Of a DNA stretch of 22,946 nt, positions 4,587 through 22,924 are shown piece by piece. The translations under genes were made by a program, and so were the position numbers. The stretch covers positions 51,825-74,770 of the forward strand of contig JAHQJS010000001.1 in the NCBI GenBank assembly GCA_019057385.1, written 5' to 3'. How positions within the stretch are numbered: position 1 is the first letter of the stretch; every line of letters begins with the position of its first letter. The notes beneath the pieces are model-generated. The model saw nothing but the letters and a program-made list of their open reading frames with translations, was not told the DNA's origin and did not search any database. This DNA is from Candidatus Borrarchaeum weybense (lineage in GTDB: Archaea > Asgardarchaeota > Sifarchaeia > Borrarchaeales > Borrarchaeaceae).

Positions 4587-5174
4587 TTATCTTATTTCTG
4601 GTCTCATCAATTCTAATGATTTCACCTTTGATTTGAAAAATTTAGTCCAATACTTTCTATTAGTATTTACTTTAGCATTGCAACTTCTACACAAAGTTAT
4701 TAAGTTATTAGAATCTAAATTTTCCTTCGCATAATCAATATGATGAATAGATAATTTCTTGCCTTCATCTTCCTGAGTTTTATCACAAAGTTGGCACGTA
4801 TGATTATCTCTTTCTCTAATTGATTCTTTCAATTCTTCATTGAATTCAAATGGATATGGAAAGTTTGAGATTCCTCCTTTCCAATTAAAATTCCTCTCGC
4901 CAAGATGAGAAATTTTCATTTTCTCTTTAGTATCTTCAGAATGATGTCTACCGAACATTGGATTATTTTGTCCAGTTCCATCTCTCTTAGCTTTGCAGAT
5001 GCAGCAGCTGCAGTTTGGTTTGTGGTTCAGAGGTTTCCCTCTATTCCAAGCAGGTTTACCCCTTCTATGATGTGCAGATAAATACTTAGGGATTCCAGTG
5101 TATTTATGATGAGGCTTTATTTCTATTCTGTCGCCGCAACCGCAGGTGCAAAAATGTAAATAGTATTTGATCAC
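4587..5174 (-). CDS. Free-standing NUMOD3-HNH homing endonuclease
   Basis: CTCGCG N-terminus; NUMOD3-like NPMFGRHHSEDTKEKM; NWKGG; HNH core IRERDNHTCQLC...IHHIDY...NNLITLCRSCN. Confidence 0.9.
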   Translation of the reverse strand: MIKYYLHFCTCGCGDRIEIKPHHKYTGIPKYLSAHHRRGKPAWNRGKPLNHKPNCSCCICKAKRDGTGQNNPMFGRHHSEDTKEKMKISHLGERNFNWKGGISNFPYPFEFNEELKESIRERDNHTCQLCDKTQEDEGKKLSIHHIDYAKENLDSNNLITLCRSCNAKVNTNRKYWTKFFKSKVKSLELMRPEIR

Positions 5175-5590
5175 TGCAGCTCTGGCCTCAATTTCACATC
5201 TATAATAAACTGCTCGGTGTAATGTCGGTTGTTCTTTCCAATGTAATCCCTATGGAAAGTGACTTTGGTTACCTTATTTTTCTTTATCGACCATTTCCCA
5301 AACATCTTATTCAAATCATCATCACTTATTCTATCTAAAAATTGATTGACAGTGACTTTCCTTTTGCCCCAAAAATTCTCAGGGTCTTTATGGCGAATCT
5401 CAACTTTCCCCCACATCTTAATTCGCTCTAACCATCCTGGTATAGTAACATCAAAAGTACAAGGGAGAATTTCTGGAGTAGCTATCTCATCGCGCATCCG
5501 ATCTAATTCAGTTGCGGTCAAGGTTTCTTCCAGAGTTGGTCCCTTATCTCCCTGGAGCAGAATGTCATATAAAACAGTATCCATCATCAT
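5171..5590 (-). CDS. Hypothetical protein
   Basis: 139-aa ORF with ATGA overlaps on both sides; no recognisable family. Confidence 0.7.
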   Translation of the reverse strand: MMMDTVLYDILLQGDKGPTLEETLTATELDRMRDEIATPEILPCTFDVTIPGWLERIKMWGKVEIRHKDPENFWGKRKVTVNQFLDRISDDDLNKMFGKWSIKKNKVTKVTFHRDYIGKNNRHYTEQFIIDVKLRPELQ

Positions 5591-5850
5591 CCTTCTACCT
5601 TTAGTGAGACGACTTTATCTTCAGGAACATTATATTTTTTCATTAAATATTCCAAGTCGTCACTAGATTCTACCGTTTCAGGTTTTCCTCTTCCTTTATC
5701 ATCCCAATAACCATATCGTGGTATCACCATCGCAACTTTACCTGTCTTAGCATCTATGGCTTCAAACGACTTTCCAAAGTCAGTAATAAATCCCTTCCCG
5801 GTAGGTTCAAATTCATTAACTATTCTTTCATACAATTCGTTATCCATCAC
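5587..5850 (-). CDS. Hypothetical protein with leader-like N-terminus (MDNELYERIVNE); likely start ATG 5847
   Basis: Coupled to both neighbours; GGAG upstream; no recognisable family. Confidence 0.7.
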   Translation of the reverse strand: MMDNELYERIVNEFEPTGKGFITDFGKSFEAIDAKTGKVAMVIPRYGYWDDKGRGKPETVESSDDLEYLMKKYNVPEDKVVSLKVEG

Positions 5851-6788
5851 TCCACCTTGTATATAGATCCATCTGCGACAGAACTTTGTAATGTTTCGGT
5901 TACTTTAACAGAAGTTACATCACTGGCATATCCAGAACTAACCACAGTATAGATTCCATCATTTCCTGTAGAATTCTGAATCCTAAACTTCTCGCCGGCA
6001 GAGAAGTCTCCTGGGAAGTTACCAAAGATTTTCACGAGGTTGTTAGTAAGATCTATCTCATAAATATCATATAAGTTTCTTCTAAAGAACCTTAGAGCAG
6101 CTTCCAGTTCGGTATTCTGATCCGAATCATCAACAATGATTTCCTCATAATTCTCAACTTGATCTTTATCGTAGAATGTTACAACTATCTTGCTTATCGT
6201 CTTGAAGCTAAGACCTCTGAATATCCAGGCATCGATCTTGATAGGCATCTTGAAGCAAAAAACTATTCCTTTTTCAAATTCTTCAGGAACAGTAGATTCA
6301 TCAACAATATCCCCAAGATGAATATCTGGAGTAATCTCATATAGGTCATTATATTTAAGCGAAACTTTGGGATTGTCTTGCTGCCAGAATATATAATCCT
6401 CCATGCATTCATAAATCTTATCTAAATCTTTGCTCCAAAACCAAACATTATATCTCAAATCCACTGGAACAGCTTTGACGTGTGCAGTTTCTTGAGTAGT
6501 GGAACTTGTCGAAACCCACATTCCCCTTCTTGAAACAACACTTCTATTTCTATCCCAACTAAAACTTGTTCCTTCTCTATAAAAATTTATGAACTCTAGA
6601 AAATTTTCTCCCCGCTTCTCGGCGGCGATTCTCATAGCCGTGTCTTTTGGAAATTGAAATACTCCCTCATTAATATTTTCCTCTTCTATGCTATGCTGAG
6701 TATCAATTCCCAAATTAGATCCAAATCGATCATAGATAAGGAGTTTCAGGGCTAAGTCATAGCTTCTTAAGAAAGAACTATTCGCCAT
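5847..6788 (-). CDS. Tail terminator / sheath stabiliser (T4 gp15-like) with an extra C-terminal beta domain
   Basis: VKAVPVDLRYNVWFWSKDLDKIYECMEDY matches the gp15-type pattern; located between the neck and sheath genes. Confidence 0.65.
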   Translation of the reverse strand: MANSSFLRSYDLALKLLIYDRFGSNLGIDTQHSIEEENINEGVFQFPKDTAMRIAAEKRGENFLEFINFYREGTSFSWDRNRSVVSRRGMWVSTSSTTQETAHVKAVPVDLRYNVWFWSKDLDKIYECMEDYIFWQQDNPKVSLKYNDLYEITPDIHLGDIVDESTVPEEFEKGIVFCFKMPIKIDAWIFRGLSFKTISKIVVTFYDKDQVENYEEIIVDDSDQNTELEAALRFFRRNLYDIYEIDLTNNLVKIFGNFPGDFSAGEKFRIQNSTGNDGIYTVVSSGYASDVTSVKVTETLQSSVADGSIYKVE

Positions 6789-7038
6789 CTTCTACGCCCC
6801 TCAAAATCTTTATGAAATACTTCACAACCAAATCTTCAAACTCTCTGGTTGGGCAAGCCAAGTTAGTTTTTACCCATTGCTCGGCGAACAATTCTGGACC
6901 CGTCCCGAGAATAATATCTTTAGCATCCTTATAACTTTTGTACATCATAAGAGACGCCATTAAAGCGCTCTGGTGAAATAGAAAATCAGCAGGACAACTA
7001 GGATCACATTCTAATTGTAGTTTAACCTTAAAATCCAT
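6778..7038 (-). CDS. Hypothetical protein
   Basis: 86-aa ORF overlapping both neighbours in the operon. Confidence 0.65.
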   Translation of the reverse strand: MDFKVKLQLECDPSCPADFLFHQSALMASLMMYKSYKDAKDIILGTGPELFAEQWVKTNLACPTREFEDLVVKYFIKILRGVEDGE

Positions 7039-7241
7039 TAGTCGAGCAATCTTGTTTTGCCCTCACTTTCGTTAACTTCAGTAAGATCCCGAGTAAAGGA
7101 CACCTGTCCTTTCAACTCATCTTCGTTGGTTATACTAACATTCTCAAGAGAAGATCCACTAGGAAGATCAACTTGTTGTCCATTCTTAAGTTTTAATGGA
7201 ACAGTCTTCTGAGAAATATTTTGTATTCTTTTAGCTTTCAT
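7038..7241 (-). CDS. Small hypothetical protein, possibly virion-associated
   Basis: 67 aa, SD AAGGGAG; short beta-rich domain (RIQNISQKTVPL...QVDLPSG). Confidence 0.7.
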   Translation of the reverse strand: MKAKRIQNISQKTVPLKLKNGQQVDLPSGSSLENVSITNEDELKGQVSFTRDLTEVNESEGKTRLLD

Positions 7242-7253
7242 TACTCTCCCTTC

Positions 7254-7742
7254 TTATGCCTGAACCCTTCTTGGAACAGCCGAGTAGGTTTTTCTTATAA
7301 CTGCGTCTTGCATTCCCTTACTCGCCGCATTTACTATTTCAAATTGTTCAGCTCCCTTATAATTTCCAGGAATGAATTCCGGCTCTATCTCAAAATAACT
7401 TCTTCTGCAGACATCAATGCTTACTACTTGCCCAGCATTTGCTCCAGAGATAGCCGTAGCTTTATTACCAAACCAAACTAATATTGGCAGCACATCCTCT
7501 GTAAATAGACCTAACTTCTTTAGTCTATATAAACTTGGATTCCAGTTAATGAAAATTTTAGCTGAGTAGCTATCAAAACTATAATCACTTGGTGTAGCAA
7601 ATACATCAAGTTTTTCCGCCGTGTTATATGATGATGTAGTAGGAATATACAAAGTACAGTCCATTCCAATAGCATCTAAAGCTACATCAACGTAGTCTCG
7701 AAGTACATCAATCGTCTCTCTTGGAAACATTCGCGTAGTCAT
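7254..7742 (-). CDS. Head closure / neck protein (T4 gp14-like)
   Basis: LRDYVDVALDAIGMDCTLYIP and LKKLGLFTED resemble gp14-type motifs; located upstream of the gp15-like gene. Confidence 0.6.
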   Translation of the reverse strand: MTTRMFPRETIDVLRDYVDVALDAIGMDCTLYIPTTSSYNTAEKLDVFATPSDYSFDSYSAKIFINWNPSLYRLKKLGLFTEDVLPILVWFGNKATAISGANAGQVVSIDVCRRSYFEIEPEFIPGNYKGAEQFEIVNAASKGMQDAVIRKTYSAVPRRVQA

Positions 7743-7743
7743 A

Positions 7744-8655
7744 TCATACTCCCATAATACTCTTGATTTTGCTCACCTCATCTGGAGTTATTTCCTCATC
7801 CTTAAGAAGTTCCTCTAATTCCTTTATGATTGTCATATACTGGTAACGAGCTATAAACTTAAAAGCCGCATTCATATCTCTCCAGTCATTAACCAGCTTT
7901 GTGTTCTTGAGGTCTTCCCACGACTTGATAGCCTTATTTCCAAGCCTTCTCAACTCAACCCAATTCTTTCTCTTTAGGTGCAAACTCTCTATATCCTTTT
8001 CAATATCCTCAAGTTTGCCTTTTAATCGAACACGAAGTTTTTCCTGAGCTTCTTTTGGTAGCCGAGGCAAAACACCATGGATTGTTTCATAGTCGATTAC
8101 ATCCCTCTTTAATTCGCCTATAACTATATCCGTTCCCTGAACAGCATTTTTTATGTCATCGCCAATATTTGAAAAGTCTTCATAAGGATCGAAATCCATT
8201 GGAACTATTCTAGGACCTTTTTTCCATTCATCGTTTTGAACATCATATACAGAATCGGAAAGGTGGTCAATATGTGATTGTAGCTGCACAAAAACTTCGA
8301 TCCTATGTTTGTCTACAAAAGCATCTATCTCCTCAGCATGCTCATCGAACCAAACTTTCGTCTCTTTTTGCTTTTCCTCAGTCCATGCACTAATATCCTT
8401 GGGAACAATATGGACGTCGATATCCGCATCTTCAGTGTAAAGATTCGTACCAATAGATCCTACTATCCTAATTTCCTCTGCTATATCTACCAGGTCAACT
8501 GGTTCATAAGCTTTAAGAACATCGAATATCTTTTCTTTAACCTCTGGCCTTAGAATATATTTATCTTCACTCTTTTGCCAAACAGATAAATCCAAATCTT
8601 CTTGAGGAAAGTCAATTAAAGATTCTTTTAAGATTTTTTCGAGAAGATTTCTCAT
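7744..8655 (-). CDS. Pol-beta superfamily nucleotidyltransferase with a C-terminal helical region
   Basis: Signature hG[S]x(8-13)DhDh seen as IVGSIGTNLYTEDADIDVHIV; third acidic residue in IEVFVQ; SVYDV..DEW..GP. Confidence 0.85.
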   Translation of the reverse strand: MRNLLEKILKESLIDFPQEDLDLSVWQKSEDKYILRPEVKEKIFDVLKAYEPVDLVDIAEEIRIVGSIGTNLYTEDADIDVHIVPKDISAWTEEKQKETKVWFDEHAEEIDAFVDKHRIEVFVQLQSHIDHLSDSVYDVQNDEWKKGPRIVPMDFDPYEDFSNIGDDIKNAVQGTDIVIGELKRDVIDYETIHGVLPRLPKEAQEKLRVRLKGKLEDIEKDIESLHLKRKNWVELRRLGNKAIKSWEDLKNTKLVNDWRDMNAAFKFIARYQYMTIIKELEELLKDEEITPDEVSKIKSIMGV

Positions 8656-8966
8656 ATGTCTTCTACTTCAGCCTCACCCTTCTTGAGTAGTTCTTCTTCA
8701 TTCGCAGCCAAATCGTTCAAAAGCTTCTGGAATTCTCCAACATGAACGCGTTCTTCGTCCGCTATACTCAGTAAAACTTTCTTGACCTTTTCATTGTCTG
8801 TAGCATCTGCGTGTGCTTGATAAAGATGAGTAGCTTCTTCTTCAGCTGCTAAGTCAAGTCTGAGCGCTCTTATTAATTCAGCGTCTGTCATCTTCCTTGG
8901 AGGAACCATCCCGCTAAAAGGATTTACAAATGCTGCTTCATGTAGCTTTTCTATAAGTTCGTGCAT
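8652..8966 (-). CDS. Ferritin-like protein of the short encapsulin-associated / rubrerythrin half-domain type
   Basis: FVNPF..., ELIRALRLDLAAEEEATHLY and IADEERVHVGEF give the E..A...Y and EExxH di-iron half-sites of EncFtn/Flp-type proteins. Confidence 0.88.
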   Translation of the reverse strand: MHELIEKLHEAAFVNPFSGMVPPRKMTDAELIRALRLDLAAEEEATHLYQAHADATDNEKVKKVLLSIADEERVHVGEFQKLLNDLAANEEELLKKGEAEVEDI

Positions 8967-8967
8967 A

Positions 8968-9549
8968 TCACATCCCTTTATAATCCTTTATATAGTCCAC
9001 TGTTTCCTGAGGAGCCTTATCTATTCCTAAGGTATTCAAATTCCCCGCACCCCAGTTATAAGCTGCCAGCCTATTTTCTACAGTATCCTCAATTCCAAAA
9101 TGTTTAAGTAGTCGTGGAATTTCCACATTCATATAATAATTAGCAACGGCAGTATTTTTATCTGCATCATGAGCTTCTTCCCAAGTCCAATCTTCGCCCA
9201 TCTTTTTAACCATCTGCTCCCAAGTAGGTCTCATGATCTGATATAAGCCTCTCGCTCCTTTAGGTGAATCAGGAGTATCCGGATCATTTCTAGACTCAAT
9301 CCAAGCGATCTTGGACATATCGATAGAAACTTTAGATATCTCTTTTGGTGCAGTAATAACAGGTTTCTCAACAGGTTTCTCAACTGAACTAGCAGGTTTT
9401 TCTGCTGTTCCCTTCCATAAACCTAAACCAGCAGCAGCTCCACCTATAAGTCCAGTAGCAGCAGCCGTTCTAAGAGTTTTCTTTATATCCAACTCATTAA
9501 CCGCCTCTTCTTTTGTGGCAGCCAAAGTTTTCTCAAGAAGTTCATACAT
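8968..9549 (-). CDS. Lytic transglycosylase (SLT domain) with an N-terminal hydrophobic segment
   Basis: SLT motifs IES (catalytic Glu), GARGLYQIMRPT, LAAYNWGAG and ETVDY. Confidence 0.93.
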   Translation of the reverse strand: MYELLEKTLAATKEEAVNELDIKKTLRTAAATGLIGGAAAGLGLWKGTAEKPASSVEKPVEKPVITAPKEISKVSIDMSKIAWIESRNDPDTPDSPKGARGLYQIMRPTWEQMVKKMGEDWTWEEAHDADKNTAVANYYMNVEIPRLLKHFGIEDTVENRLAAYNWGAGNLNTLGIDKAPQETVDYIKDYKGM

Positions 9550-9550
9550 T

Positions 9551-9958
9551 TTAGTGACTCGGATAATAAAAGCCTACCGCAACATCCTCAACTCCGCCCT
9601 CACGGTTGATTCTTATCGTGAGTGATTCAGCGGCATATCCCGATCCAGGAAGCCAATCTATATGCCAGTCAACCGCGTCGAAGTCAAAAAGCACTTCTAT
9701 AGTATCCACATGATTATCTTCAGCATCAACTATCTCTACATCAAACTCAACTCTTCCTCGTGGAGTAACTGTTATGTCCTTTATGCCCCAGTCTCGATAC
9801 TCAATTTCGATATCATATGATATGCGAATACTATCCGGACTCTGCTCTTCTTCGCCATCTTTCAAACCATCAACATAAACAGAAACAGTATCAACGTTTA
9901 TACTATAGTTTTCGTCAGCTTCATTCAGGTTTGATAATTTTTCAACAATCTCTCGCAT
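9551..9958 (-). CDS. Acidic hypothetical protein
   Basis: 135 aa, about 33 D/E versus 10 K/R by hand count; coupled to its neighbours. Confidence 0.8.
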   Translation of the reverse strand: MREIVEKLSNLNEADENYSINVDTVSVYVDGLKDGEEEQSPDSIRISYDIEIEYRDWGIKDITVTPRGRVEFDVEIVDAEDNHVDTIEVLFDFDAVDWHIDWLPGSGYAAESLTIRINREGGVEDVAVGFYYPSH

Positions 9959-12351
9959 TATTCTTCCTTTACGATGACCATGAACTTCTTTGGATCTTCC
10001 TCATCCGTTACAACCTGACCCTTTTCTTTCCGAGCGATTTCTTCAGCATTAGCCTTATCTTCAATTCCCTTAGCTATAGTTGAAAAAGTTTGCTCATCTA
10101 CTTTATCTTCACTAACAAGCCCGGCGAATTTCGCATTCAAAGTCCGAGCAAGCTCTTTTCCCTTTTTTGTAAGTTTATCTAAATCAGGATCGGTATCTAC
10201 CTCTATCTTCTCTCCTTTTGGTAGTTCGACGATGCTAAGATTAAAAACATCTGAGTCTATTTTGCTTCTTGAAATCTCAATAACTACTTGTGATTCCACA
10301 TCAGCTTCAATCTCTTTTTGCCTCATCTCTTTTTCTTCCAACTCAGACCTCATCGGAATCGCTCTGTTTTTCTCCACCCAGTTAGCTTGATAATCAGTGA
10401 ATACGCGAATCTTTTTCCCCGCCACGTTCTGCGGACGAAAAGCAGAAACCGGATCTCCTTTTTTATCTAATAAAGGATTGCTCCAGAGTTGATTATGCTC
10501 ATACTTAAATGTTAAATCCCAATCCTCTTCCTTCTCGTTAGTTGTAGCTGCAAGATAAGGTTTCATAGCCTTAGTAAGAAGGATATGTTTTAGATACACT
10601 ATTCTAAAATCTTGTATATCATCAAAATCAGCTATTGCTGCGTCGACTCCAGCCTTGGTTAACTCATCAACCATCTGCTCATCGGATGGCCATTCATTCG
10701 GGATAACTCCATCCTCAAGGGCTTTATATAGCGCCGCTTGCTCTTCTTTTTCTATTCCAGGTACTTCGCCAACTAACTCGCGAATCCCCTCCTTGAGGCT
10801 TGACTCAAAAGGGGCATCATCCCCCTCTTTACTTCCTTTCTTCGGTTCTTCTGTAATTGGTCCTTCAACTTTAATATCCTCTCTAGATGGACGCTTGGCT
10901 TCTCTTTCAGCATGAGCTTTATCAAAGGCCATAACCGTTGTAGATTCTTCTTTTCCAGTACTCTTATTTTTCCAGGTTACCTTAAAAGGTTCTTTTGTTT
11001 GACCAGCGGCTAAGTCGGAATCTCTTCCCTCCATAGCTCTCTCAATTTTTTCGACAGAGATAATTTCAGCTGACGGATTTTTATCTTCAACAAACTGCTT
11101 CGCATCCTCTTCATCAAAGGCCATGACCTTATCCTCTTTTTCCTTCTCCCCATCCTTAAAAACTACTTTGAAGGGCTTCTTGAAAAAGTGAACAGTTCCT
11201 TTCTCCTCTTGAGTTATTCTTTCGGTATTCTCACTATCGCACTCAGTACACTTTGATTCATTACTTCGGAAAGTTCTGCAGCACTCATTACATAACCAAA
11301 GTGGTTTTTGTCTGCTCACAAAAGAAAATTTAGAATCTTTAACTCCTCTGGCCAGGAGCAAGTTTCGAACATCTGGAGCGGACATTTTTCCTTTTGAAGA
11401 TTTTGCAGCTTTCTGAACAGCTTGCTCCCTTGTCATTTGACTTTCTTCTCTGGCTTTCCTATAAACTTTTATCACAGCATCTTCTAGAGTATCCACCTGC
11501 TCCATGGCCGCACCAAAAAGCCCTCTTTCTTTCATCTCATCTTCATATGCTTTTAGCACTTCCTCAGACTGAGTGATAAGTTCAGCATGTGCTTTGTCCG
11601 CCTTCCAAAGCTCAAGAGATCTACGAGCATTAGAATGAAGTTTTTTGAGTTCATCATCAGAAATATCCTTAATTCCTTCTATTACAGATTCCTTCTTTGG
11701 TTTAACCACCTTATCCGGTTCTATTTTTAACTCATCATCCTCAACGGGTTTGATAACATCTTCAGCATCTTTGGGTTTCTTTTTTGGCTTTTCGAGATCC
11801 TCTTTTGAGAGATCCTCCATATGAGAATCTTCAGCTTTAACATCTGGCTCCTCCTGAGGCTTCATAGTTTGCTCAGCATCTTCAGCTTCATTAGTTGTAG
11901 ATTCTCTTGGTGGAATACCTAAAGTTTCTCCCGGAGCTACGTCCTCTACATGTCCGCATTTTAGGCATTTGATCTTGCCTTCTATTTCAGCTGTCTTCCC
12001 AGATCCACACCTAACACATCTATACTTCTCATTGACTTCAGAATCCTTCAACTCACTTGCACATACATTAGTAATGACAAAACCATCTTCAAACATTATG
12101 CTATAGCGAGCCACTTCTTCTCCAACGGATTCAACAACTTCAGCTACAGATTCGTTATGATTCAGCCTGCTTGCATGCTCATCAGCTCCAAGTGTTCTAA
12201 CAAGGTCAGAATTATTAAGACCAGAGCCAAACATATTATAGACTACTTTATCGCCCTTCTTAAATGAGCCTCTTTCTTCATCTATATCCGGGGTTGTGGA
12301 TTCCCGAATTTTGCCCAGTAGGTTAAGTACATCCTCATCTTTTGGATACAT
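9958..12351 (-). CDS. Large modular Glu/Lys-rich protein (SH3-like module, two Zn ribbons, internal repeat); probable internal head protein
   Basis: 797-aa ORF with CVRC..CLKC, CNEC..CTEC and a duplicated PFKV.[FW]K....E...VMAFD...A unit; SD GGAG. The function is inferred. Confidence 0.75.
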   Translation of the reverse strand: MYPKDEDVLNLLGKIRESTTPDIDEERGSFKKGDKVVYNMFGSGLNNSDLVRTLGADEHASRLNHNESVAEVVESVGEEVARYSIMFEDGFVITNVCASELKDSEVNEKYRCVRCGSGKTAEIEGKIKCLKCGHVEDVAPGETLGIPPRESTTNEAEDAEQTMKPQEEPDVKAEDSHMEDLSKEDLEKPKKKPKDAEDVIKPVEDDELKIEPDKVVKPKKESVIEGIKDISDDELKKLHSNARRSLELWKADKAHAELITQSEEVLKAYEDEMKERGLFGAAMEQVDTLEDAVIKVYRKAREESQMTREQAVQKAAKSSKGKMSAPDVRNLLLARGVKDSKFSFVSRQKPLWLCNECCRTFRSNESKCTECDSENTERITQEEKGTVHFFKKPFKVVFKDGEKEKEDKVMAFDEEDAKQFVEDKNPSAEIISVEKIERAMEGRDSDLAAGQTKEPFKVTWKNKSTGKEESTTVMAFDKAHAEREAKRPSREDIKVEGPITEEPKKGSKEGDDAPFESSLKEGIRELVGEVPGIEKEEQAALYKALEDGVIPNEWPSDEQMVDELTKAGVDAAIADFDDIQDFRIVYLKHILLTKAMKPYLAATTNEKEEDWDLTFKYEHNQLWSNPLLDKKGDPVSAFRPQNVAGKKIRVFTDYQANWVEKNRAIPMRSELEEKEMRQKEIEADVESQVVIEISRSKIDSDVFNLSIVELPKGEKIEVDTDPDLDKLTKKGKELARTLNAKFAGLVSEDKVDEQTFSTIAKGIEDKANAEEIARKEKGQVVTDEEDPKKFMVIVKEE

Positions 12352-12352
12352 T

Positions 12353-12796
12353 CTACTTCTCCTCTTTTTCCATAGGTATTAAATCAACACTCTCCCCGTC
12401 GATATTTGTCCATTTCCCAGTTTTGCCGGTATTCTCCCAATCAATAAGATCCTTCACGCGGTCACTTATCTTCTTATCTCTCGACCAATGAGCTACATGA
12501 TGTTTTCGACCATCCTTCATCACCGGCCTATAACAAATAGGTAGATCGGAAAATCTTAGATTAAGCAATTTGTGGATGCTTCTGGGAACAGAACCTGCGG
12601 AGAGTATGAATCCAAGAATTTCCTGAGCCTTCTTATCTTTAGGTAGTATTTTCTTCCCTTGTTCTGAGGCAACATCAAACAAATTATCCACGCCAGTCGC
12701 TGGAACTGAGGCGGAATAATCACCTAAAGTTTTGAGTAATTTCTGGTATAGGCTCACATCTCGAGCTTCTCGAATTTGCTTAAGTATGTTATCCAT
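12353..12796 (-). CDS. Hypothetical protein with leader MDNILKQIREA
   Basis: 147 aa; SD AGAGGA. Confidence 0.75.
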   Translation of the reverse strand: MDNILKQIREARDVSLYQKLLKTLGDYSASVPATGVDNLFDVASEQGKKILPKDKKAQEILGFILSAGSVPRSIHKLLNLRFSDLPICYRPVMKDGRKHHVAHWSRDKKISDRVKDLIDWENTGKTGKWTNIDGESVDLIPMEKEEK

Positions 12797-12867
12797 TGCT
12801 ATTCCTCTAACAATCCTTCATACAATCTTCTACGTTCCAACGTATATATGTTAACTATAAGATATGA

Positions 12868-13755
12868 TTACTTAGTCATATCCTCTATAACTTCGTAAAG
12901 TGTACCGAAAAAGTCGGTATTGAATTTCTCGTCACTCGGATATAATACTCTCCCAACTCTCTTAACAGAAGACACCCGTTTCTCTACCTCATCTAAAACA
13001 TGTTCGCTATCTACATAAATAGACTCGGAGACCATAAAAGAGGTATCGACAGCAGCTTCAAAAATTAACGGGATATCATGAAATTTGCTTTTTATTCTAG
13101 TTCCATAGATGTTATCATAGCCTTTGAATACCTCATGGGCACTTAACGGCCTGCCACTATCTATATCATCGATAAGCATCTCCATGTTGCCTTTATCTTC
13201 ACCATAGACATATAAGAGACCACTGGATAACTTCTGAGAATCCTTCTCTTTATTTTCAAATCTTATAGCAACTTTGTCTTCATTGGTTACAAACTCAGAT
13301 ACTCCAAAACGACTTGCCCAAACTTTTATTGTTTTGTCCAAGGAAGAAAATCTTTGCTCATTGAGCATCTCAGTTATAACCGGCTTCAAATCATCACGAA
13401 GCTTTTCAAGATCATCCTCCATAGCTTCGTTCAAGAGATCTTTTAAATTTAGGTATGAATCATCATCCAACTTTCCTGAGAACATTTCTTGGAAAGCTTC
13501 CCAGTGCTCTTTTGGAACGATGATCCTTAGAGCGTCTTCAATTCTAATATCCTTATTCCCATTGTCATCTTCCAATATTTCTAAACCCCATTTCCACTTC
13601 TGTCTCGATAAGTCTTTAACTTTAGTTCTGATAGCTCCCAAGTGAGCTGGAATAAAAGTTATGGCGTCCATTGTAGTGGCTTCGATGAGTTTTATTCTCC
13701 TATGAATCTCAACCTGCCCCAACTCGTCACACATATCAAAGTATTCTCTTGTCAT
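12868..13755 (-). CDS. Hypothetical protein
   Basis: 295 aa, TAATG-coupled to the upstream gene; SD GAGG. Confidence 0.8.
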   Translation of the reverse strand: MTREYFDMCDELGQVEIHRRIKLIEATTMDAITFIPAHLGAIRTKVKDLSRQKWKWGLEILEDDNGNKDIRIEDALRIIVPKEHWEAFQEMFSGKLDDDSYLNLKDLLNEAMEDDLEKLRDDLKPVITEMLNEQRFSSLDKTIKVWASRFGVSEFVTNEDKVAIRFENKEKDSQKLSSGLLYVYGEDKGNMEMLIDDIDSGRPLSAHEVFKGYDNIYGTRIKSKFHDIPLIFEAAVDTSFMVSESIYVDSEHVLDEVEKRVSSVKRVGRVLYPSDEKFNTDFFGTLYEVIEDMTK

Positions 13756-14153
13756 TACCTCACCCTAACTAGATCTAAAAATTCTTTCCAACTGCTGCCT
13801 TCTTTTCCTTTTCTCGGATGTTTATATTCAAAGAAAAACTTATCCTCATTTTTAGCTAATTTATACAAAGATTTAATTTGACTTTCACTAGGCATTACAG
13901 AAAACATCACATCCATCTCTGACCGGGGCTCGTTTAGTAACCAACGGATATTCCCTCTATTTAAAAATTCATCATAAGCTAGACCAGGATTACCAGACCA
14001 ACCTTCTTTCTCCAATGCCTCCAAGGCATAAGTATCATGATCCCCTATCACATATTGAGGAATCTCTTCAATTCTACCATCAGAAAGAACGTAACCTCCT
14101 CTTTTGAAATACGTCCACTGCTCACACAAACATTTCTCAAGAAGTTCAAACAT
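13755..14153 (-). CDS. Hypothetical protein with leader MFELLEKCLCE
   Basis: 132 aa; GGYVLSDG..H..GNIRW pattern; coupled on both sides. Confidence 0.75.
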   Translation of the reverse strand: MFELLEKCLCEQWTYFKRGGYVLSDGRIEEIPQYVIGDHDTYALEALEKEGWSGNPGLAYDEFLNRGNIRWLLNEPRSEMDVMFSVMPSESQIKSLYKLAKNEDKFFFEYKHPRKGKEGSSWKEFLDLVRVR

Positions 14154-15001
14154 TAGAAAAGCTCTTCCTCTGGAGGTCGTTCTCTCTTTCTTGGAGTTTC
14201 TACCTCTGGTTCTTCTTCAGGTTTTTCCGGTTCTCTTTCTGGACGCCTTCTGAGACGTTTTCCAGGTTTTCGTTTCGGCTTTTTTCTAACTTTCTTTTTC
14301 GGCTTTTCTTCTTCCTCTTCTTCTGGTTCCTCTAGCTCTTCCGGTTCTTCTGGTACTCCTGCTCGCCGTTTTCTTAAAGCTGCGGCCGCTCGTTTAACCC
14401 AACCAAACTCTTCTTTTGCTTCATCCTCCCACTCGCGTATTTCTTTACCGTAGAAATCCCGAAGCCACTTTGCCATTGTACTTCCATAGAATGGAAAGGC
14501 CTTGAGCAATCTGTCTAAGTGCTTACAAACCATTCCATATTGTCTTGGATTTCTGACTTTTGGAGGACGCGTCTCCTTCCTTGTATACTTAGCATCATAT
14601 TTGCCCAAACTCCTTATATAGTGACCACCCCAGTAAAGGTCTGCCGGGCAAGAGCAGAATAATTGAATATCCGCCCTATTCATAAATTCCTTGGCCAGCT
14701 TTCTCAGGTCAACTCTTGATTTGTCTGCAGTCCAAAACCTTCTATCCTTGACCAATCTTTCTAATGTTGGTTTCACATTCTTAAAGTGGATATATCCATC
14801 ATACCAGACATCATCTTTTGTCCCACTATGCAGCCTAAACTTCCAAGTCTCTGGATCTTGATCATCAAGACGAATGCCTCCCTTATCTTCTACTCCCTTT
14901 GTCTTTTTGTCGAAGTCGGGAAAGAGTCGTTTTATGGATCGATGCTTCCTTAAAATATCACTAGCGGTAGCTTCTACTAATTTATCTATTAAATCAATCA
15001 T
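14153..15001 (-). CDS. SWIM-like zinc-finger protein with a charged low-complexity tail
   Basis: CxC...CKH (FCSCPA...RNP...GMVCKHL); the C-terminus alternates poly-Glu and Lys/Arg blocks. Confidence 0.75.
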   Translation of the reverse strand: MIDLIDKLVEATASDILRKHRSIKRLFPDFDKKTKGVEDKGGIRLDDQDPETWKFRLHSGTKDDVWYDGYIHFKNVKPTLERLVKDRRFWTADKSRVDLRKLAKEFMNRADIQLFCSCPADLYWGGHYIRSLGKYDAKYTRKETRPPKVRNPRQYGMVCKHLDRLLKAFPFYGSTMAKWLRDFYGKEIREWEDEAKEEFGWVKRAAAALRKRRAGVPEEPEELEEPEEEEEEKPKKKVRKKPKRKPGKRLRRRPEREPEKPEEEPEVETPRKRERPPEEELF

Positions 15002-15636
15002 TGTGTACTAAGTAAATCTCCACTCAGTAATATTCTAAAGTTTTGTGTCTTTCCAATATCCGTGATTGCTACGTCTTGGATTTTTAAGCCCCATCCATCT
15101 GAGGCGTTTCTAACTGATTCTAAAAGTTTATTTTTTAACTCATCCAAACTGGATTTTAGCTCATCCAAGGTATGCTGACGGACATAATCACAAACCACGC
15201 CTAAGACCACATTTTGAAGACTCTGGTCGTAATCATGAACCTCCAGAAGAGCTTTCATGGCATTCTTAACATAATATCTGATAGATGTACCAACAGTTAC
15301 ATCATGACCATCTTTTGTCCAAACTGATTGAGCTCTAATATCCTTTACTTGCGTTTTAGTTTTGCATGTTTCATATTCCATTATCCAAGGAATTATCCAA
15401 TACCATCCTCCTGCCTTTGTTTCAGTAAGCCAGGTATTTTCATGTTTTACTCTTGGATGCCAAGGCTTCATCGCCCATGGCTTTTTGATCCATGTCCATC
15501 TAATCCAAGGCCAGTAATCCCACGGCCATCCTTTCCAAGGTTTTGGTACCTGCCTAAAGCCAGCTTCATCATCTCGGATAATAGCGGGCCTTGGAATAAA
15601 TCCTGTTATTGTTTCTAATAAAGATATGACCCACAT
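14998..15636 (-). CDS. SPFH / Band 7 domain protein with a Trp/Pro-rich insertion
   Basis: GWYWIIPWI, QSVWTKDGHDVTV...IRYYV, WGLKIQDVAITDI are typical SPFH elements. No clear SD. Confidence 0.85.
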   Translation of the reverse strand: MWVISLLETITGFIPRPAIIRDDEAGFRQVPKPWKGWPWDYWPWIRWTWIKKPWAMKPWHPRVKHENTWLTETKAGGWYWIIPWIMEYETCKTKTQVKDIRAQSVWTKDGHDVTVGTSIRYYVKNAMKALLEVHDYDQSLQNVVLGVVCDYVRQHTLDELKSSLDELKNKLLESVRNASDGWGLKIQDVAITDIGKTQNFRILLSGDLLSTQ

Positions 15637-15664
15637 AATATTTCAAAAATTCCGAAAAATTTCT

Positions 15665-15692
15665 TTGAGTACAAACCATCATTTTGTATAAT
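15665..15692 (+). promoter_or_regulatory. Sigma70-type promoter antisense to the structural operon
   Basis: TTGAGT (15665-15670), 16-nt spacer, TATAAT (15687-15692); A/T tracts upstream; located in the largest intergenic gap of the window. Confidence 0.5.
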
Positions 15693-15759
15693 TACTTATG
15701 AATGGTTAAAATCAACGCCCCTCTTATATTTTGAGAAAGTTAAGGATGACGTCCACCTG

Positions 15760-15806
15760 TAGGCGAAAGTTTACCCCCAGCTTTCGCCTATCTTTATTTT
15801 CTTTTC
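15760..15806 (+). terminator. Intrinsic terminator-like hairpin, U-tract on the + strand
   Basis: Perfect 10-bp stem TAGGCGAAAG (15760-15769) / CTTTCGCCTA (15781-15790), followed by TCTTTATTTTCTTTT. No U-tract follows it on the minus strand. Confidence 0.6.
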
Positions 15807-16483
15807 ATCATGATTACCCATCTGCAATCCCTGGCGAGTCTTGCTTGCAAGTCCTTTACTTCTTCTCTTCCTTCGTCAATCATAGCCTGGCCATCAATAG
15901 GAGTATCAATAATAGCTGTCTTCCTCAAAGTATTTCCTTCTATCTGCTTTACTAACGCCTTAGCGTAATAAAGCACCCAATCCAGGATGTATTCATTTGT
16001 TACATTCTCGTTACTTAGAATCCTTTTCGTTCCAATTACAAATAAACTTGAAACATTGTTTGGAACGTTAATGGCGTAAACATATCCTCCGGTTGTAGGA
16101 TCATCTGACTTCTGCCAATGAAATCTAAAGTTTGTTCCTACATATATTCTGTAGTTTCGGAAAGCTTCAGACATCATAATCAAGTCGGTAGTAACATTAT
16201 CCAAAACGGTTATACCAGTTAATGTCCAAAGAGGATGATCGTTCCAAATCCAAGTAGTTGCCTGCGTCGGAATAACATCTACAACGGATTTAAATTCTGG
16301 ATCAATTTGAACTCTCTTAGTGCCAGCGGCGTAGTCATATACACCCGATATCTTAAATGCTGAATGAGTATTCCAATATCTAACAGCGTTATCAACTTGT
16401 TGAAGGAGAGTATTCGTAGGAGATATTAAAGTTAGTGGCTTAAATTCTTCCACTATCCAGCTAACCATTTCAGTTCTATTCAT
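15794..16483 (-). CDS. Neck / head-tail adaptor protein (T4 gp13-like)
   Basis: C-terminal DWVLYYAKALVKQIEGNTLRK...IDGQAMIDEGREEVKDL matches the gp13-type ending; N-terminal VDNAVRYW; SD GGAG. Confidence 0.8.
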   Translation of the reverse strand: MNRTEMVSWIVEEFKPLTLISPTNTLLQQVDNAVRYWNTHSAFKISGVYDYAAGTKRVQIDPEFKSVVDVIPTQATTWIWNDHPLWTLTGITVLDNVTTDLIMMSEAFRNYRIYVGTNFRFHWQKSDDPTTGGYVYAINVPNNVSSLFVIGTKRILSNENVTNEYILDWVLYYAKALVKQIEGNTLRKTAIIDTPIDGQAMIDEGREEVKDLQARLARDCRWVIMMKRK

Positions 16484-17406: not shown

Positions 17407-18918
17407 CTACGAAGTCTGATATCCGGAGCCGAGATTAGTGATCTTGCCTTCGTTAAACAGACCGGCATTGATAACCTTGAAACCTGCTGCTGAGAGGAAT
17501 CCCTTCTGAGCAATCAAGTCACTGGTGATCAATGTTGGAGTGGTGAACAGAGGAATATACGGAGCATAAATGAAGCCCGCATAGAGATAACTTGGACCAC
17601 GGAAGCCACAAGTGTAATAATCTCTCCTCTTGAACGGGTTCTGGACAACCGTACGACCATCCAAGTCACCGATTACCATCGGACCAGTTGGAACTGGAGC
17701 GGCAGCCTTACGCGGAGTAAATCCATGATCAGTTAACTGCCTGATCACTCGGGCAACATTATTACCACAATGGATAAAGGTTGCCACACCACGTTTGGTT
17801 TTCTCAAAGATAAGGTTCGAAGCTTGTTCGATTCTATCTTTGAATTCTGCCTTTTTCCACAGCCAAGGTTCACCAAGACCAGGTCTGGCATCCCAATCGG
17901 TTGGAGCAGTAGCAGCTTCAGATGAAGATGCCGCTTCATCGATCATATCCAAACCTACTTGGTCAATGGTAAACTTAACTTCGCTGCCGAGATACTTCAC
18001 CAGTTCACTCTCAAGATCGATTCCATGCGCCTTCATTAAATCGATTTGAGCACCGATGCTGTACTTAGCCCTCAGTGGGAAGTCAATCGCTTCCACTGTT
18101 GACTGAGTGACAGATACATCAACTTCCGGAACGCCAGTCTTGTTGCCATAGGCGTCTTCCACAAGGTCATACTGGTAATCGTAAGTGATGTAAATAGTAT
18201 CGCTACTTGAAGTTCCGGTGACTATAAAGTAGTATGTTCCATTAGCAGCTATCGAACCAGTTCCACTAATATAAGTACCAGTAATCTGCCCTGAGGAGTT
18301 ACTGGAACCAACCAGAGTTCTGGATTCGTTGATAGTACCAATATTAGATACTGTCTCAATCTTGACATTCTCAAGATTGATCAACTTATTATAGTCAAGG
18401 GTACCAGAAGTGATACCATCACCTTGGCCGACAGCTTCGTCAACCACTCGAGCCATTGCATACCGACGTCCACTCTTGCCGATAGAATGACCAGTTTTGG
18501 CTCCAAGCATTGTATCTCCACTGGAGACGTTGCCCTTGTTGGAACCATATTTCACATCAAGATAGAACACAGCTGCGATTCGCCGATCCATAGCCTGCAC
18601 AACCGCTATCTCATTAAGAGCTAACGATGGCAGCAATGCCGCGATAACAGGAAGCTGAACGCCTAAGAAAGCAATATTATCCTCAGTTGTAGTTTCAAAC
18701 AACCTGGTTCCAGCTTTTAATCCTGTATCGATAATGGCATTGTAAAGACATTGTGCTACGTTCCGCTTCTCATAAACCGACATTCCACGGTTTTGATTAG
18801 CCTGAACGTGCTCTTCAACTATGCCGAGATACTTCTTGATTCGGGGAATCTTCATCAAGGCTTCTTGCTGTGAATGTAGGGCAGCTAATTGAGATTGTAC
18901 TAATTCTATGTCAGTCAT
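17407..18918 (-). CDS. Major capsid protein (T4 gp23-like, HK97 fold)
   Basis: EIAVVQAM, VFYLDVKY, LRAKYS..AQIDL..AHGIDLESEL, LYAGFIYAPYIPL. Start placed at ATG 18918, 8 nt after SD AGAGGGG. Candidate maturation site LFE|T at residues 73-76; ends TAG TAG TGA. Confidence 0.95.
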   Translation of the reverse strand: MTDIELVQSQLAALHSQQEALMKIPRIKKYLGIVEEHVQANQNRGMSVYEKRNVAQCLYNAIIDTGLKAGTRLFETTTEDNIAFLGVQLPVIAALLPSLALNEIAVVQAMDRRIAAVFYLDVKYGSNKGNVSSGDTMLGAKTGHSIGKSGRRYAMARVVDEAVGQGDGITSGTLDYNKLINLENVKIETVSNIGTINESRTLVGSSNSSGQITGTYISGTGSIAANGTYYFIVTGTSSSDTIYITYDYQYDLVEDAYGNKTGVPEVDVSVTQSTVEAIDFPLRAKYSIGAQIDLMKAHGIDLESELVKYLGSEVKFTIDQVGLDMIDEAASSSEAATAPTDWDARPGLGEPWLWKKAEFKDRIEQASNLIFEKTKRGVATFIHCGNNVARVIRQLTDHGFTPRKAAAPVPTGPMVIGDLDGRTVVQNPFKRRDYYTCGFRGPSYLYAGFIYAPYIPLFTTPTLITSDLIAQKGFLSAAGFKVINAGLFNEGKITNLGSGYQTS

Positions 18919-18937
18919 TTTCAAATCCCCTCTTTAA

Positions 18938-21900
18938 TTAACTGTTCATACCTTCAAACACATTATTTACACTACGTTTAGCTCTCTCATGTTCTGGATC
19001 ATTCTTAGGTTTACTAACAGCTACACCCGATATGGACTCAGAGTGAAGTGCACCCCGCCTGCTAGCATCTAAAATTTCATCTAGAACATCATCCACTTGT
19101 TCTGGCGATTCACAATCCTCAAGAAGTGCCCGAGAATTTTCATCGACTTTCAGATTAGTTTCAGAAAGTCTAAACTCAACAAAACGCTTAATAAACTCCT
19201 TTGTAACTTCTTCTCTTACTCTTTTTTCTGTTTCTGTTTTTGCCTCCTTAATCTTTTCCTTAGCTACTTCATTTGCTTCTTGCAATGCCTTTTCATGTTT
19301 TACTTTAGCTTCTTGTAAAGCTTTCTTATGCTTGCTCTCAGCAGCAGAAGCAGACTCCTTCAAACTCGTGATATCTTTAGACAGGTCGGATTTTATTTTC
19401 TCTACCTGTTTTTGAACTTTCTTAGCCTGCTCAACCTTCTCGTCCAACTGCTTTTGTAAATCAGCTGAAAGTTTTGCCTTCTCCTCTAATTTGGATCGTA
19501 ATGCTTCAACCTCTCGTTCCTTAGCTTCAAAGGTTTGATTCGCCTTTTTGATAAGTATTTTAGCTTCAAGAGCTTTTTCTTTTCTGGCCTTTGCCTTAAG
19601 GTCATTTTTCTCACTTGTAGCTTCTTCAAGAAGTTCCAATGTTTTATCTCTTTCAGCTCTTGTTGAAGCTTCCTTAACTTTCAGGTCTTTAATTTCTTTG
19701 GCAGTGGTTGAGATAGATTCCTTTTTACCTTTCTTCCTATGAGCTTTCTTCACAGCCTTTTCTTTTCCAAGTTGCTTCATGGCTGTAGGATAGGCTTTCT
19801 TAAGAGCTTCTTCTCCAGAATCGCCCCCATCTTTATATCCTTTAGCTATTTTAATAGCAAGCTCATGGAAAGCTTTTGTATGAATACCTTTACCATCTGG
19901 AGCAGGAAGTCCGGCATCCCGGTACATCTTCTTGATGTCTTCTGTTTCGTCTATCTCTTCGGACTCTTCTAACTCTTCCTCCGCCCATTCATTGTATTCA
20001 TTGATAAGCTCCTTAAGTTCTTCCACTCCAGGAATTTTATCACTTAAGTCAGGCAGCTCCTCTTCAATAGCTTTGATTGCATTTGGATTAGGATCTTCAA
20101 ACTCATGGTTTTCCAAATATTCCATCTGAGTAGCTATAGCAGTACCAAGGCGAGAGTCAAGGATGTTAAACAATTCTGTGTACTGTCCTTCGTATGTCCA
20201 AGCTCCTTCATCTACTTCTTCAGCTTCTTCAAGAACTTTTTTACCTTCATCACTGAGTTCTAATCCAACTTCTTTGCCTCTCTTAATTACCTCTTTCTTG
20301 GAATTGGTTAATCCTGTAAGATGTTTCGCAAAAGCATTGTCAATAGACTTGAAGAGTTTCTTCACATCCGCAGTAGACAACTTTTGTTCATCTACTTCAG
20401 ATTCTGATACTCCTTCTACATGTCCACACTTATGGCATTCCCACTGAGATATGTCTCCCTCGGCATGAGGTGCTCCTTCGGACATTTCAGCTCCGCACTT
20501 AGGACATTTCTTCTCGTCCAGCTTTTCTTCTAAAACCGGTTCGGTATATCCACACTTCACACACTCAAACTGATTATCTTCAGAATCAGGAATTGCCCTT
20601 ATCTCCATCTTTTCCTTACATTTTGGGCATTTCTTTTCATCTACTTTTTGCTCTTTGACTTTTTCATCAAAGGTACTCTTGATAATAGAATCTATCTTAT
20701 CCTTATTCAATCCGGAGAGATGAAGCACTTTTCGTATAGCATCTTCTTTCTTTCCTCTACGCTTCATCACTTGAGCAAGTTGGTGTGCATATACCAGATC
20801 TTCCTCATCTACTCGGGTTTCGGATATTTTTGTAAATCCTTCTCTATCAAAATCATTCCATGACTTCTTAACTAGAGCTCCAACACCTCCACCCATAACT
20901 TCCAGATTAACTCCGTTCACGTCAAAGCTATCTACAACATAAGATTCGCCTGCTCTATTCTGAACAACACTCCCTTTCTGGAGACCATGTGCTTCATCAA
21001 TTTCAGACTCAGATTCCTTAGTTGCTTTCTTGTGCTTATCACACTTCTCTTCCATCTCCTCTTCAGGCATTTCTGGTTCAGCTACTATCTCTGAATCAAC
21101 TTCTGGCTCTGGTGGAAGTTCAGGTTCTTTTTCTACCTCTTTTGGAGGTGGAACCAAAGTAATGCAAACCGAATCTGGATTCTCTACCTGAACTAACGTT
21201 CCATCATCAAGCATTACCCCAACACCTTGTTCGTCAATAGTAGTAACTTTCCCAGATTCATTTTCGTAATCACCTTCTGTAAGAATGACCTGGTCATCAA
21301 CTTCGATACTTTCCTTACCAGGCTTCTCCGCAGCTTTGCTAACTTCGATATTTTTATATTTACGCTTAACAGCACTTGCAACTTTTTTCACAAGGTCTTC
21401 CAAGCTTCCCTTATACCAAGGCGGAGCTTTGCTATACTGATTAGCTCTGGATAATGCATTCCTTGCCTGAGCTTTATTGTTAATTGGGAAGTGATCCTTA
21501 TCATCTTTAACCTTGGAACTTCCAGCAGGAAATATAACATCTCCTCTATTTCTAACTTTAGCCTTCGGATCCTTCTTAGCCTCTGGGACTGGCTCGTCTT
21601 TCATAAGTTCTTCAGGAGTTTCATCTCCAGTGACTGCTGGCATTCCCATTCCAGTATTTCCTGGTTCGGGCATTTCTACCGGAGGTTCTCCAGGACCTGG
21701 GCAAGGTGGAGCTTCTTGTTCCGGCTGAATAAATATTGTACCATCCAGCTCTATAATAACATAAGCTGCTCCATTTATCTTTACTTCTTTCCCACCACTA
21801 GAATCCATTCCAGGAATTGATATATCAACTTCTTTTCCTTCCTCAACCTTTGTAACTTTGCCTTCCATCTCATTGCCATCTTGGATAAAGTTGATTGGCA

Positions 21901-22688: not shown

Positions 22689-22771
22689 TAGCCTGGGCAG
22701 GATTCGAACCTGCAAGCTCGTTTGAGCAGTAGTTTCTAAGACTACCGTGTATGCCATTCCACCACCAGGCC
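22689..22771 (-). tRNA. trnL: tRNA-Leu (TAG)
   Basis: Acceptor GGCCTGG/CCAGGCT plus A73; anticodon arm GTAGT-CTTAGAA-ACTAC; long variable arm; T arm GCAGG-TTCGAAT-CCTGC; no CCA. Confidence 0.93.
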
Positions 22772-22775
22772 GTAG

Positions 22776-22847
22776 TGGAGAGGATGGGAATCGAACCCAC
22801 CACAGATTGCTTGCAAGGCATTCTCGCCCCTTGGAACATGCCTCCCC
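22776..22847 (-). tRNA. trnA: tRNA-Ala (TGC)
   Basis: Acceptor GGGGAGG/CCTCTCC with the G3:U70 Ala determinant and A73; loop CTTGCAA; T arm GTGGG-TTCGATT-CCCAT; weak D arm; no CCA. Confidence 0.88.
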
Positions 22848-22851
22848 AATG

Positions 22852-22924
22852 AGCTGGAGGAGGGAATCGAACCCACAACCACTCGCTTACAGGGCGAGCG
22901 CTCTGCCAGTTGAGCTACTCCAGC
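22852..22924 (-). tRNA. trnT: tRNA-Thr (TGT)
   Basis: Acceptor GCTGGAG/CTCCAGC plus U73; D arm GCTC/GAGC; anticodon arm CTCGC-CCTGTAA-GCGAG; no CCA. Confidence 0.92.

Follow-up and report, generated by a model that had tools for sequence, protein, structure and literature searches.

What does a gene for an encapsulin cargo do in the structural operon of a phage, and what address does its product carry there? The shells known as encapsulins have the HK97 fold and are related to phage capsids; their classic cargo is the encapsulated ferritin (EncFtn). We approached this question in a stretch of 22,946 nucleotides (the window), which covers positions 51825-74770 of contig C1 in the bin of the Asgard archaeon Candidatus Borrarchaeum weybense. 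The bin comprises 4.18 Mb in eight pieces, and C1 is a 179-kb scaffold that carries phage genes and has a slightly higher G+C content. The gene in question encodes P0001, a protein of 104 amino acids (aa), which is best explained as a predicted subunit of an EncFtn-type di-iron ferroxidase within a phage-specific branch of that family. P0001 begins with a ten-residue leader that resembles the propeptides of T4 internal proteins, and we lean towards the view that the protein is packaged in the phage head and processed at this leader. The gene and its parts are as follows.

8652-8966, minus strand: EncFtn-type ferritin-like gene, P0001, 104 aa, from open reading frame (ORF), translation and homology.
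8937-8966, minus strand: leader MHELIEKLHE, residues 1-10, with L8-H9-E10 ahead of A11; a candidate for both a capsid-targeting propeptide and a protease site.
8655-8936, minus strand: predicted mature P0001, residues 11-104, 10.5 kDa, pI 4.6, from alignment A1.
8742-8843, minus strand: di-iron residues E42 (8841-8843), Y49 (8820-8822), E72 (8751-8753) and H75 (8742-8744), codons checked.

The ORF runs on the minus strand from an ATG at 8966-8964 to a stop at 8654-8652, and the protein starts with MHELIEKLHEAAFVNPFSG. The original prediction, made from the DNA letters, had described a 104-aa protein with two half-sites, and both motifs were found in the minus-strand translation (LAAEEEATHLY, residues 39-49, and DEERVH, residues 70-75). 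The protein is acidic, with a pI of 4.7 and a net charge of -12. On the 5' side the stop of an SLT transglycosylase gene is separated from P0001 by a 1-nt gap, and on the 3' side the stop of P0001 lies in an ATGA overlap with the start of a nucleotidyltransferase (NTase) gene. P0001 is thus translationally coupled to both neighbours and forms part of a long minus-strand operon.

Several lines of evidence place P0001 in the EncFtn family. The Pfam family Rubrerythrin (PF02915) matches the protein at 1.6e-8, which passes the cut-off (35.5 versus 22.8 bits), and its sequence matches in the PDB are EncC of M. xanthus (7s8t, 6.7e-18), EncFtn of P. furiosus (5n5e, 5e-12) and EncB (7s5c, 5e-5). An AF2 model built with 30 homologues has a mean pLDDT of 82 (core above 90) and contains a long hairpin of two helices (residues 28-55 and 59-87) followed by a short third helix (90-103); residues 2-10 form a short helix of low confidence, and the chain is then disordered up to residue 27. 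When the model was compared with the PDB by Foldseek the top matches were of the EncFtn type only, with target-normalised TM values of 0.7-0.88 (5n5e, 7s8t, 7s5c/7s5k, R. rubrum 5da5 and its mutants, NE0167 3k6c, and 5n5f). In the ferroxidase centre of R. rubrum EncFtn, Glu32, Tyr39, Glu62 and His65 serve as ligands (PMC5012862). Residues E42, Y49, E72 and H75 of P0001 have the identical spacing, E-x6-Y-x22-E-x2-H, and this was retained in 20 of 20 phage or fusion forms as well as in all 83 cellular forms examined. A complex prediction with two copies of residues 11-104 and iron scored 0.20, against a mark of 0.42, and counts neither for nor against the assignment. At the level of sequence we regard it as established that P0001 has the EncFtn-type fold and family membership, with an intact di-iron active site. 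The earlier assignment to an encapsulin-type ferritin-like protein therefore stands on both the PDB matches and the Foldseek entries, and the fold that was modelled is that of EncFtn.

More than 1,180 homologues of P0001 were found, the best cellular ones being 66-78% identical across residues 13-104. At the C-terminus the long cellular forms (about 113-136 aa) carry a ..PT[VI]G[SDN]LK peptide, for example ..IPTVGNLKK, and Gly-Ser-Leu-Lys is an established type of encapsulin localisation sequence. Linkage to encapsulin genes was counted at 74 loci of species-representative genomes. An encapsulin gene was present in the locus of 57 of the 58 genes that bear this targeting peptide (TP), usually starting less than 100 bases downstream, while 14 of the 16 TP-less genes were without one (Fisher 4e-12 for TP versus encapsulin linkage); three of the shell genes match Linocin_M18 in Pfam at e-64 to e-70. 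These counts bear out the earlier statement that the short ferritin type is typically an encapsulin cargo, and the typical members of the P0001 family are thus true cargo. P0001 itself is without the cargo label. We looked for a C-terminal encapsulin TP in P0001 and found none; the protein ends in ..GEAEVEDI, 3-4 residues past the core, in agreement with the original prediction that no targeting extension is present. No encapsulin shell gene was found in the window, a PF04454 search of the whole bin gave no match, and the only other ferritin-like match in the bin is a distant one on C7. An encapsulin from the bin's own organism was considered and rejected, as the bin holds none and is Asgard archaeal, and the phage carries a peptidoglycan-type transglycosylase.

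One could still imagine that P0001 is loaded into a host encapsulin and thereby poisons or hijacks the host nanocompartment, as its 66-78% identity to genuine encapsulin cargo might suggest. We consider such a hijack very unlikely, close to negligible, because the protein lacks the C-terminal TP, which is the feature that tracks encapsulin genes. That neither the window nor the bin holds an encapsulin gene also speaks against it, though the bin may not be the host.

At the N-terminus P0001 differs from its cellular relatives as well. In alignment A1 all 26 non-phage sequences start with M[PA][ED]F[VLI][ND]PF, one of them with an extra 7-aa upstream extension. The typical cellular start is MPEFVNPF, and P0001 has ten extra residues where the cellular MPE stands. 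Within A1 an N-terminal extension of 9-12 residues is found in P0001 and three relatives only. The statement in the original prediction that cellular homologues start just before FVNPF thus agrees with 26 of 26 sequences, and the extension is not one that the cellular homologues in A1 share. Its further proposal, that a phage captured a nanocompartment-type ferroxidase, was supported, with a caveat on the donor. The family is indeed linked to encapsulins, but the nearest cellular relatives (locus L005 of Planctomycetes bacterium DG_23, and P0004) are TP-less and not beside an encapsulin gene, and therefore the gene donor may have been a free short ferritin-like protein (FLP) of this encapsulin-associated family and not an actively encapsulated one. 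The gene row at L005:2207-5447 comprises Fe/Mn superoxide dismutase, desulfoferrodoxin, the FLP and a ZIP transporter, and looks like an oxidative-stress and metal cluster without encapsulin. This neighbourhood favours, in general, a role in detoxifying iron or oxygen.

The ten additional residues of P0001 recur in its surroundings. A similar leader is present on six adjacent genes, whose products are mostly unrelated and include an NTase-like protein, an SLT transglycosylase, a SWIM-like basic protein and three small family-less proteins. They are listed here together with the gene that heads the cluster.

7744-8655, minus strand: 303-aa nucleotidyltransferase-like protein, downstream neighbour, leader MRNLLEKILKE before S (Pfam MTPAP-like/NTP_transf_2, weak).
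8968-9549, minus strand: 193-aa SLT lytic transglycosylase, upstream neighbour, leader MYELLEKTL... (Pfam SLT, 4.4e-11).
9551-9958, minus strand: 135-aa protein, leader MREIVEKLSNLNE before A.
12353-12796, minus strand: 147-aa protein, leader MDNILKQIRE before A; EncFtn fusions in a sister phage lineage have its homologue as their C-terminal part.
13755-14153, minus strand: 132-aa protein, leader MFELLEKCLCE before Q.
14153-15001, minus strand: 282-aa protein, leader MIDLIDKLVE before A.
14998-15636: SPFH/Band 7 gene, at the head of the leader-gene cluster.

Like P0001, the tagged neighbours are mostly acidic, and the SLT protein matches the PHROG 'internal virion protein with endolysin domain' at 1.3e-8. 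The leader pattern matches seven of the nine genes at 7744-15001 (a post hoc count, see below) and the other two carry a displaced version. It matches 9 of 304 genes on the 179-kb contig, and the background is 20 in 3,015 long ORFs (0.7%) on the other bin contigs. A stricter pattern with a second [LIV]-x-E was dropped as it missed P0001, whose L8 fills both roles. On related, independent contigs a relaxed pattern was matched by 8 of 15 (L099), 5 of 8 (L093) and 3 of 7 (L001) genes of the syntenic region, with a background of 1.8%.

The leader has a counterpart in T4. There, the ten N-terminal residues of IPIII are enough for packaging, processing depends on residues 8 and 10, and the cut made by gp21 falls after L/I-x-E (PMC9026906, PMC3012670). 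T4 IPI, IPII, IPIII and Alt resemble the tagged genes of the window in that a propeptide of about ten residues with L/I8 and E10 stands on unrelated proteins, in a phage with a gp21-family protease and a gp23-family capsid. The window differs from T4 in its set of cargo proteins, which is largely acidic, and in its protease, which is part of a long modular protein. A cut after E10 of P0001 would leave AAFVNPF.., two residues before the conserved core. Both the protease and the capsid protein are encoded in the window.

17407-18924, minus strand: major capsid protein of the T4 gp23 family (Pfam Gp23, 2.2e-36).
18938-22645, minus strand: 1235-aa protein whose N-terminal domain is a prohead protease of the gp21 type (Pfam Peptidase_S77, 4.5e-9, over the cut-off).

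We presume that the product of 18938-22645 is the enzyme that removes the leaders; its gene lies about 10 kb from that of P0001. Other T4-type structural genes on the same strand encode a tail sheath, two gp19-type tube proteins and a T4-type baseplate protein, and the leader-gene cluster is placed between the head genes and the neck/tail genes. The original prediction that MHELIEKLHE is the phage's own tag is thus strengthened by the same leader on six neighbours, by its geometry, which is that of a T4 capsid-targeting sequence (CTS), and by the gp21-type protease in the genome. Two further observations concern this structural region. Just upstream of the protease gene, at 22689-22924 on the minus strand, the window holds tRNA-Leu (anticodon TAG) and tRNA-Thr (anticodon TGT). 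Between the sheath and the neck-side genes, a 195-aa Cys/His-rich ORF with a ..HHIDY..N..LC..CN.. motif (4587-5174, minus strand) looks like an HNH-type homing endonuclease inserted into the structural operon.

The shared leader could be real and yet lead elsewhere. It might address a site other than the capsid, such as the neck, the tail, the baseplate or an SPFH membrane platform, or it might be an inhibitory propeptide that the protease removes, so that the EncFtn would act at that other site or only once activated. The SPFH/Band 7 gene at the head of the cluster and the position of the cluster between head and neck/tail genes would fit such a function. On the other hand, leader length and the position of L/I-x-E match the T4 CTS, the gp21-type prohead protease encoded 10 kb away belongs to a type that acts inside proheads, and the SLT neighbour resembles known internal virion proteins. 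To our knowledge, gp21-type prohead proteases are the sole users of L/I-x-E leader sites. We therefore regard a non-capsid address as unlikely.

Orthologues on other contigs allow a comparison of gene order and leaders. The order EncFtn then NTase is kept in L099, L093 and L143. On L099, a 156-kb metagenomic contig, the order SLT, EncFtn, NTase is kept with leaders on all three, and in L092/L093 the EncFtn gene lies between a homologue of the 797-aa gene and the NTase gene. The leaders of the orthologues (L099, L092/L093, P0003, P0019) differ from that of P0001 in their residues and are 11 or 12 residues long. All five clade-A orthologues have [LIV]-x-E and then A or G directly ahead of the conserved F-x-[ND]-P-F, and a motif that is kept although the leader residues differ speaks for selection at the level of the peptide, not of the DNA. 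Within the window, the first 21 bases of the SLT gene (9529-9549) and of the 132-aa gene (14133-14153) are 20/21 identical, synonymous sites included, and leader-coding DNA therefore seems to have been copied between genes.

Such copying would fit a reading in which P0001 is an ordinary late auxiliary protein, buffering iron or reactive oxygen in the cytoplasm of the dying host, with the extension as a by-product of its insertion into an operon whose gene starts are copied about. The oxidative-stress gene cluster around the closest cellular relative fits such a role, and a precedent exists in the Dps-like ferritin of Lactobacillus plantarum myophages, which likewise belongs to the ferritin superfamily and for which an antioxidant role in the cytoplasm has been proposed (PMC6669764). 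That protein differs from P0001 in being a four-helix protein encoded near replication genes, with no leader or link to head assembly (PMC6669764), whereas the P0001 gene lies among structural genes. Five orthologues whose leaders otherwise differ keep both the pattern of the leader and the [LIV]-x-E-[AG] junction, which points to selection on the peptide, and, as described below, in sister lineages this enzyme is joined to cargo genes in other ways. For these reasons we find a purely cytoplasmic function quite unlikely.

EncFtn domains of other large phages were found by searching for longer relatives and by IMG/VR scans. The 84-kb fragment L001 is syntenic with the window, and its EncFtn has the cellular-type start MAEFVNPF. 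Here (L001:9998-11020, P0125) a 340-residue protein has EncFtn as its N-terminal third and a homologue of the 147-aa tagged protein of the window as its C-terminal part. The same fusion build, with a variable middle, recurs in four further proteins, P0121, P0122, P0132 and P0135 (249-388 aa for the group). All five contain an internal ..KMNI[FL]E-AKD junction, that is, the leader-plus-cleavage motif (cut before AKD) inside the protein, and they look like protease-processed polyproteins. A third arrangement is present in L002 (IMGVR_UViG_3300027917_000033), where eight consecutive ORFs at 5128-10345 start with ..[DE]IA.[LM]ITEDPD[VI], which differs from the leader of the window. The EncFtn gene two genes downstream of this run has the tag at its C-terminus instead, as ..IADFITEDPD (..IADFITEDPDWSVSK), and the I-T-E within it is again I-x-E. 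In L003/L004, a 320-kb jumbo phage with terminal repeats, EncFtn carries an acidic C-terminal extension ending in ..KIADEI. An S77 protease was found in the L001 and L003/L004 records and not in L002, which is a 24%-complete fragment. Taken together, the address of EncFtn appears to vary inside one phage clade between an N-terminal leader, fusion to a cargo gene and a C-terminal tag.

Some longer relatives have other architectures. P0130 (799 aa, on a 170-kb contig) contains EncFtn as an internal module among repeated ..[AS]SLLK[TEKS].. linkers, which are not the [LIV]-x-E of the window. P0131 joins an N-terminal EncFtn to a region that bears a GNAT-like Q-x-x-G-x-G motif, and P0127, P0128 and P0136 combine an N-terminal EncFtn with a common family-less C-terminal domain of about 340-480 aa. 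IMG/VR scans with P0130, P0127 and P0131 gave no usable match.

The relationship of these forms was analyzed in a maximum-likelihood tree of the core only (103 sequences, 92 columns, root not fixed), which replaced a first tree that included the tag columns and was unresolved. All 12 phage-context sequences and three long fusions fall into one group with zero cellular members. Two TP-less proteins, of which L005 is one, are placed as its sisters (81/82). Among cellular sequences the tree tracks phyla, and the phage group lies within the part dominated by Planctomycetota. The simplest reading of the tree is a single capture, possibly of a TP-less planctomycete-type gene, which then would have spread among phages and been re-addressed repeatedly.

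Packaging of P0001 in the phage head, the reading we prefer, can be put into a sequence of steps. The leader would work as a T4 CTS does and dock P0001 onto the scaffolding core during prohead assembly. The gp21-type protease would then cut after L8-H9-E10, so that mature P0001 would start almost where cellular EncFtn starts, and the protein would either stay in the head or enter the cell with the DNA, alongside the tagged transglycosylase and the nucleotidyltransferase. Iron-bridged dimers, which may proceed to decamers, would oxidise Fe(II) to Fe(III), and the phage DNA would thereby suffer less Fenton damage in habitats rich in Fe(II) and poor in oxygen. The assembly of EncFtn is described as metal dependent (PMC5012862), and an unassembled two-helix hairpin could therefore be ejectable in principle. 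The role may lie in shielding the packed genome from Fenton chemistry or in the newly infected cell.

A number of points weigh against this account. Packaging, cleavage and activity of P0001, and also its presence in virions, are all inferred. T4 internal proteins are basic and bind DNA, and P0001, with its net charge of -12, would be unlike them. An EncFtn decamer could not pass through the tail tube unless dissociated, an EncFtn without a shell oxidises iron yet cannot store it, and a head filled with DNA has scant room for mineral. The leader pattern was written from the same genes on which it was counted, which makes the window statistic post hoc. The Pfam family EncFtn-like (PF22277) matches P0001 at 3.5e-4 with 20.7 bits, below its gathering score of 27; the near cellular homologues beside encapsulins are likewise mostly listed with PF02915 alone. 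The node of the phage group is supported by UFboot 88 and SH-aLRT 98, a moderate support based on 92 columns and a bootstrap that was not fully settled. Finally, C1 was binned with an Asgard archaeal genome and no spacer links it to the other pieces of the bin.

The last point concerns the host. When the other seven contigs of the bin were compared with C1 by blastn, chance-level matches of 19-26 nt were the only ones found, the best of them lying outside any repeat array, and the ends of C1 yielded no terminal repeat. From the head-tagged SLT transglycosylase one would expect the host to have peptidoglycan. Together with the planctomycetal relatives of the EncFtn this leaves the binning unproven as a basis for host assignment, and C1 is probably a bacterial phage that was binned by composition.

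How does the proposed system relate to those already described? The 2024 structural review of encapsulated FLPs distinguishes the classes FLP-TP, fusion-FLP, s-FLP and IMEF, and the word phage is absent from it (PMC11202242). With the EncFtn/Flp-TP cargo of family 1 encapsulins (M. xanthus EncC 7s8t and EncB 7s5c, R. rubrum 5da5, H. ochraceum 5n5f) P0001 has the two-helix fold and the E/Y/E/H spacing in common, and its identity to EncC is 46-48% over the fold alignment. Unlike them, it is without a TP or a nearby shell gene, has a leader added at the N-terminus and is the product of a late operon of a phage. Closer in build are the s-FLPs (NE0167, 3k6c), which like P0001 are TP-less and about 100 aa long, but which start at the core with no leader; the L005 copy is on a bacterial chromosome. 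In the fusion-FLP encapsulins of archaea (P. furiosus 2e0z/5n5e) the FLP reaches the HK97-fold shell by covalent linkage and not by a TP, which parallels the EncFtn-cargo fusions of phages. In the phage fusions, by contrast, a protease-type junction links EncFtn to a small internal protein, and the copy in the window is unfused.

Among 50,697 deposited phage genomes we found no DNA match to positions 7000-16000 of the window and no tblastn match to P0001, and PHROGs holds no family that matches it. A full-text literature search combining EncFtn or encapsulated ferritin with phage returned no report of a phage-borne or virion-borne EncFtn. We know of no ferritin-like cargo described for T4-like phages. 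What is known, then, is the EncFtn enzyme and packaging by a CTS; what is new is that the two are combined, and that EncFtn forms a phage-specific clade in which the address labels are interchangeable. A far-reaching version can be imagined, in which the heads of large T4-like phages of anoxic sediments are encapsulin-like iron-oxidising compartments, supplied by one EncFtn lineage that was passed among phage groups with genomes of about 150-320 kb and re-addressed in at least three ways; root permitting, the loading of ferritin cargo into HK97-fold shells could then have begun in viruses and been inherited by encapsulins. We regard this as a long shot.

Our results describe an encapsulin-cargo enzyme family in real phages, in which a phage head-address label replaces that of the encapsulin. 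If its packaging is borne out, P0001 would be the first known case of a ferritin-type enzyme among the internal proteins of virions. In T4 such tags have been used experimentally to bring foreign proteins into heads (PMC3012670, PMC9026906), and a packaged P0001 would be the natural counterpart to this engineered, CTS-based packaging. The system also offers a handle on how viruses protect their packed DNA, or prime their hosts, in anoxic settings rich in Fe(II). With its three addressing modes, the phage clade amounts to a natural experiment on the evolution of cargo tags, which bears on the link between capsids and nanocompartments.

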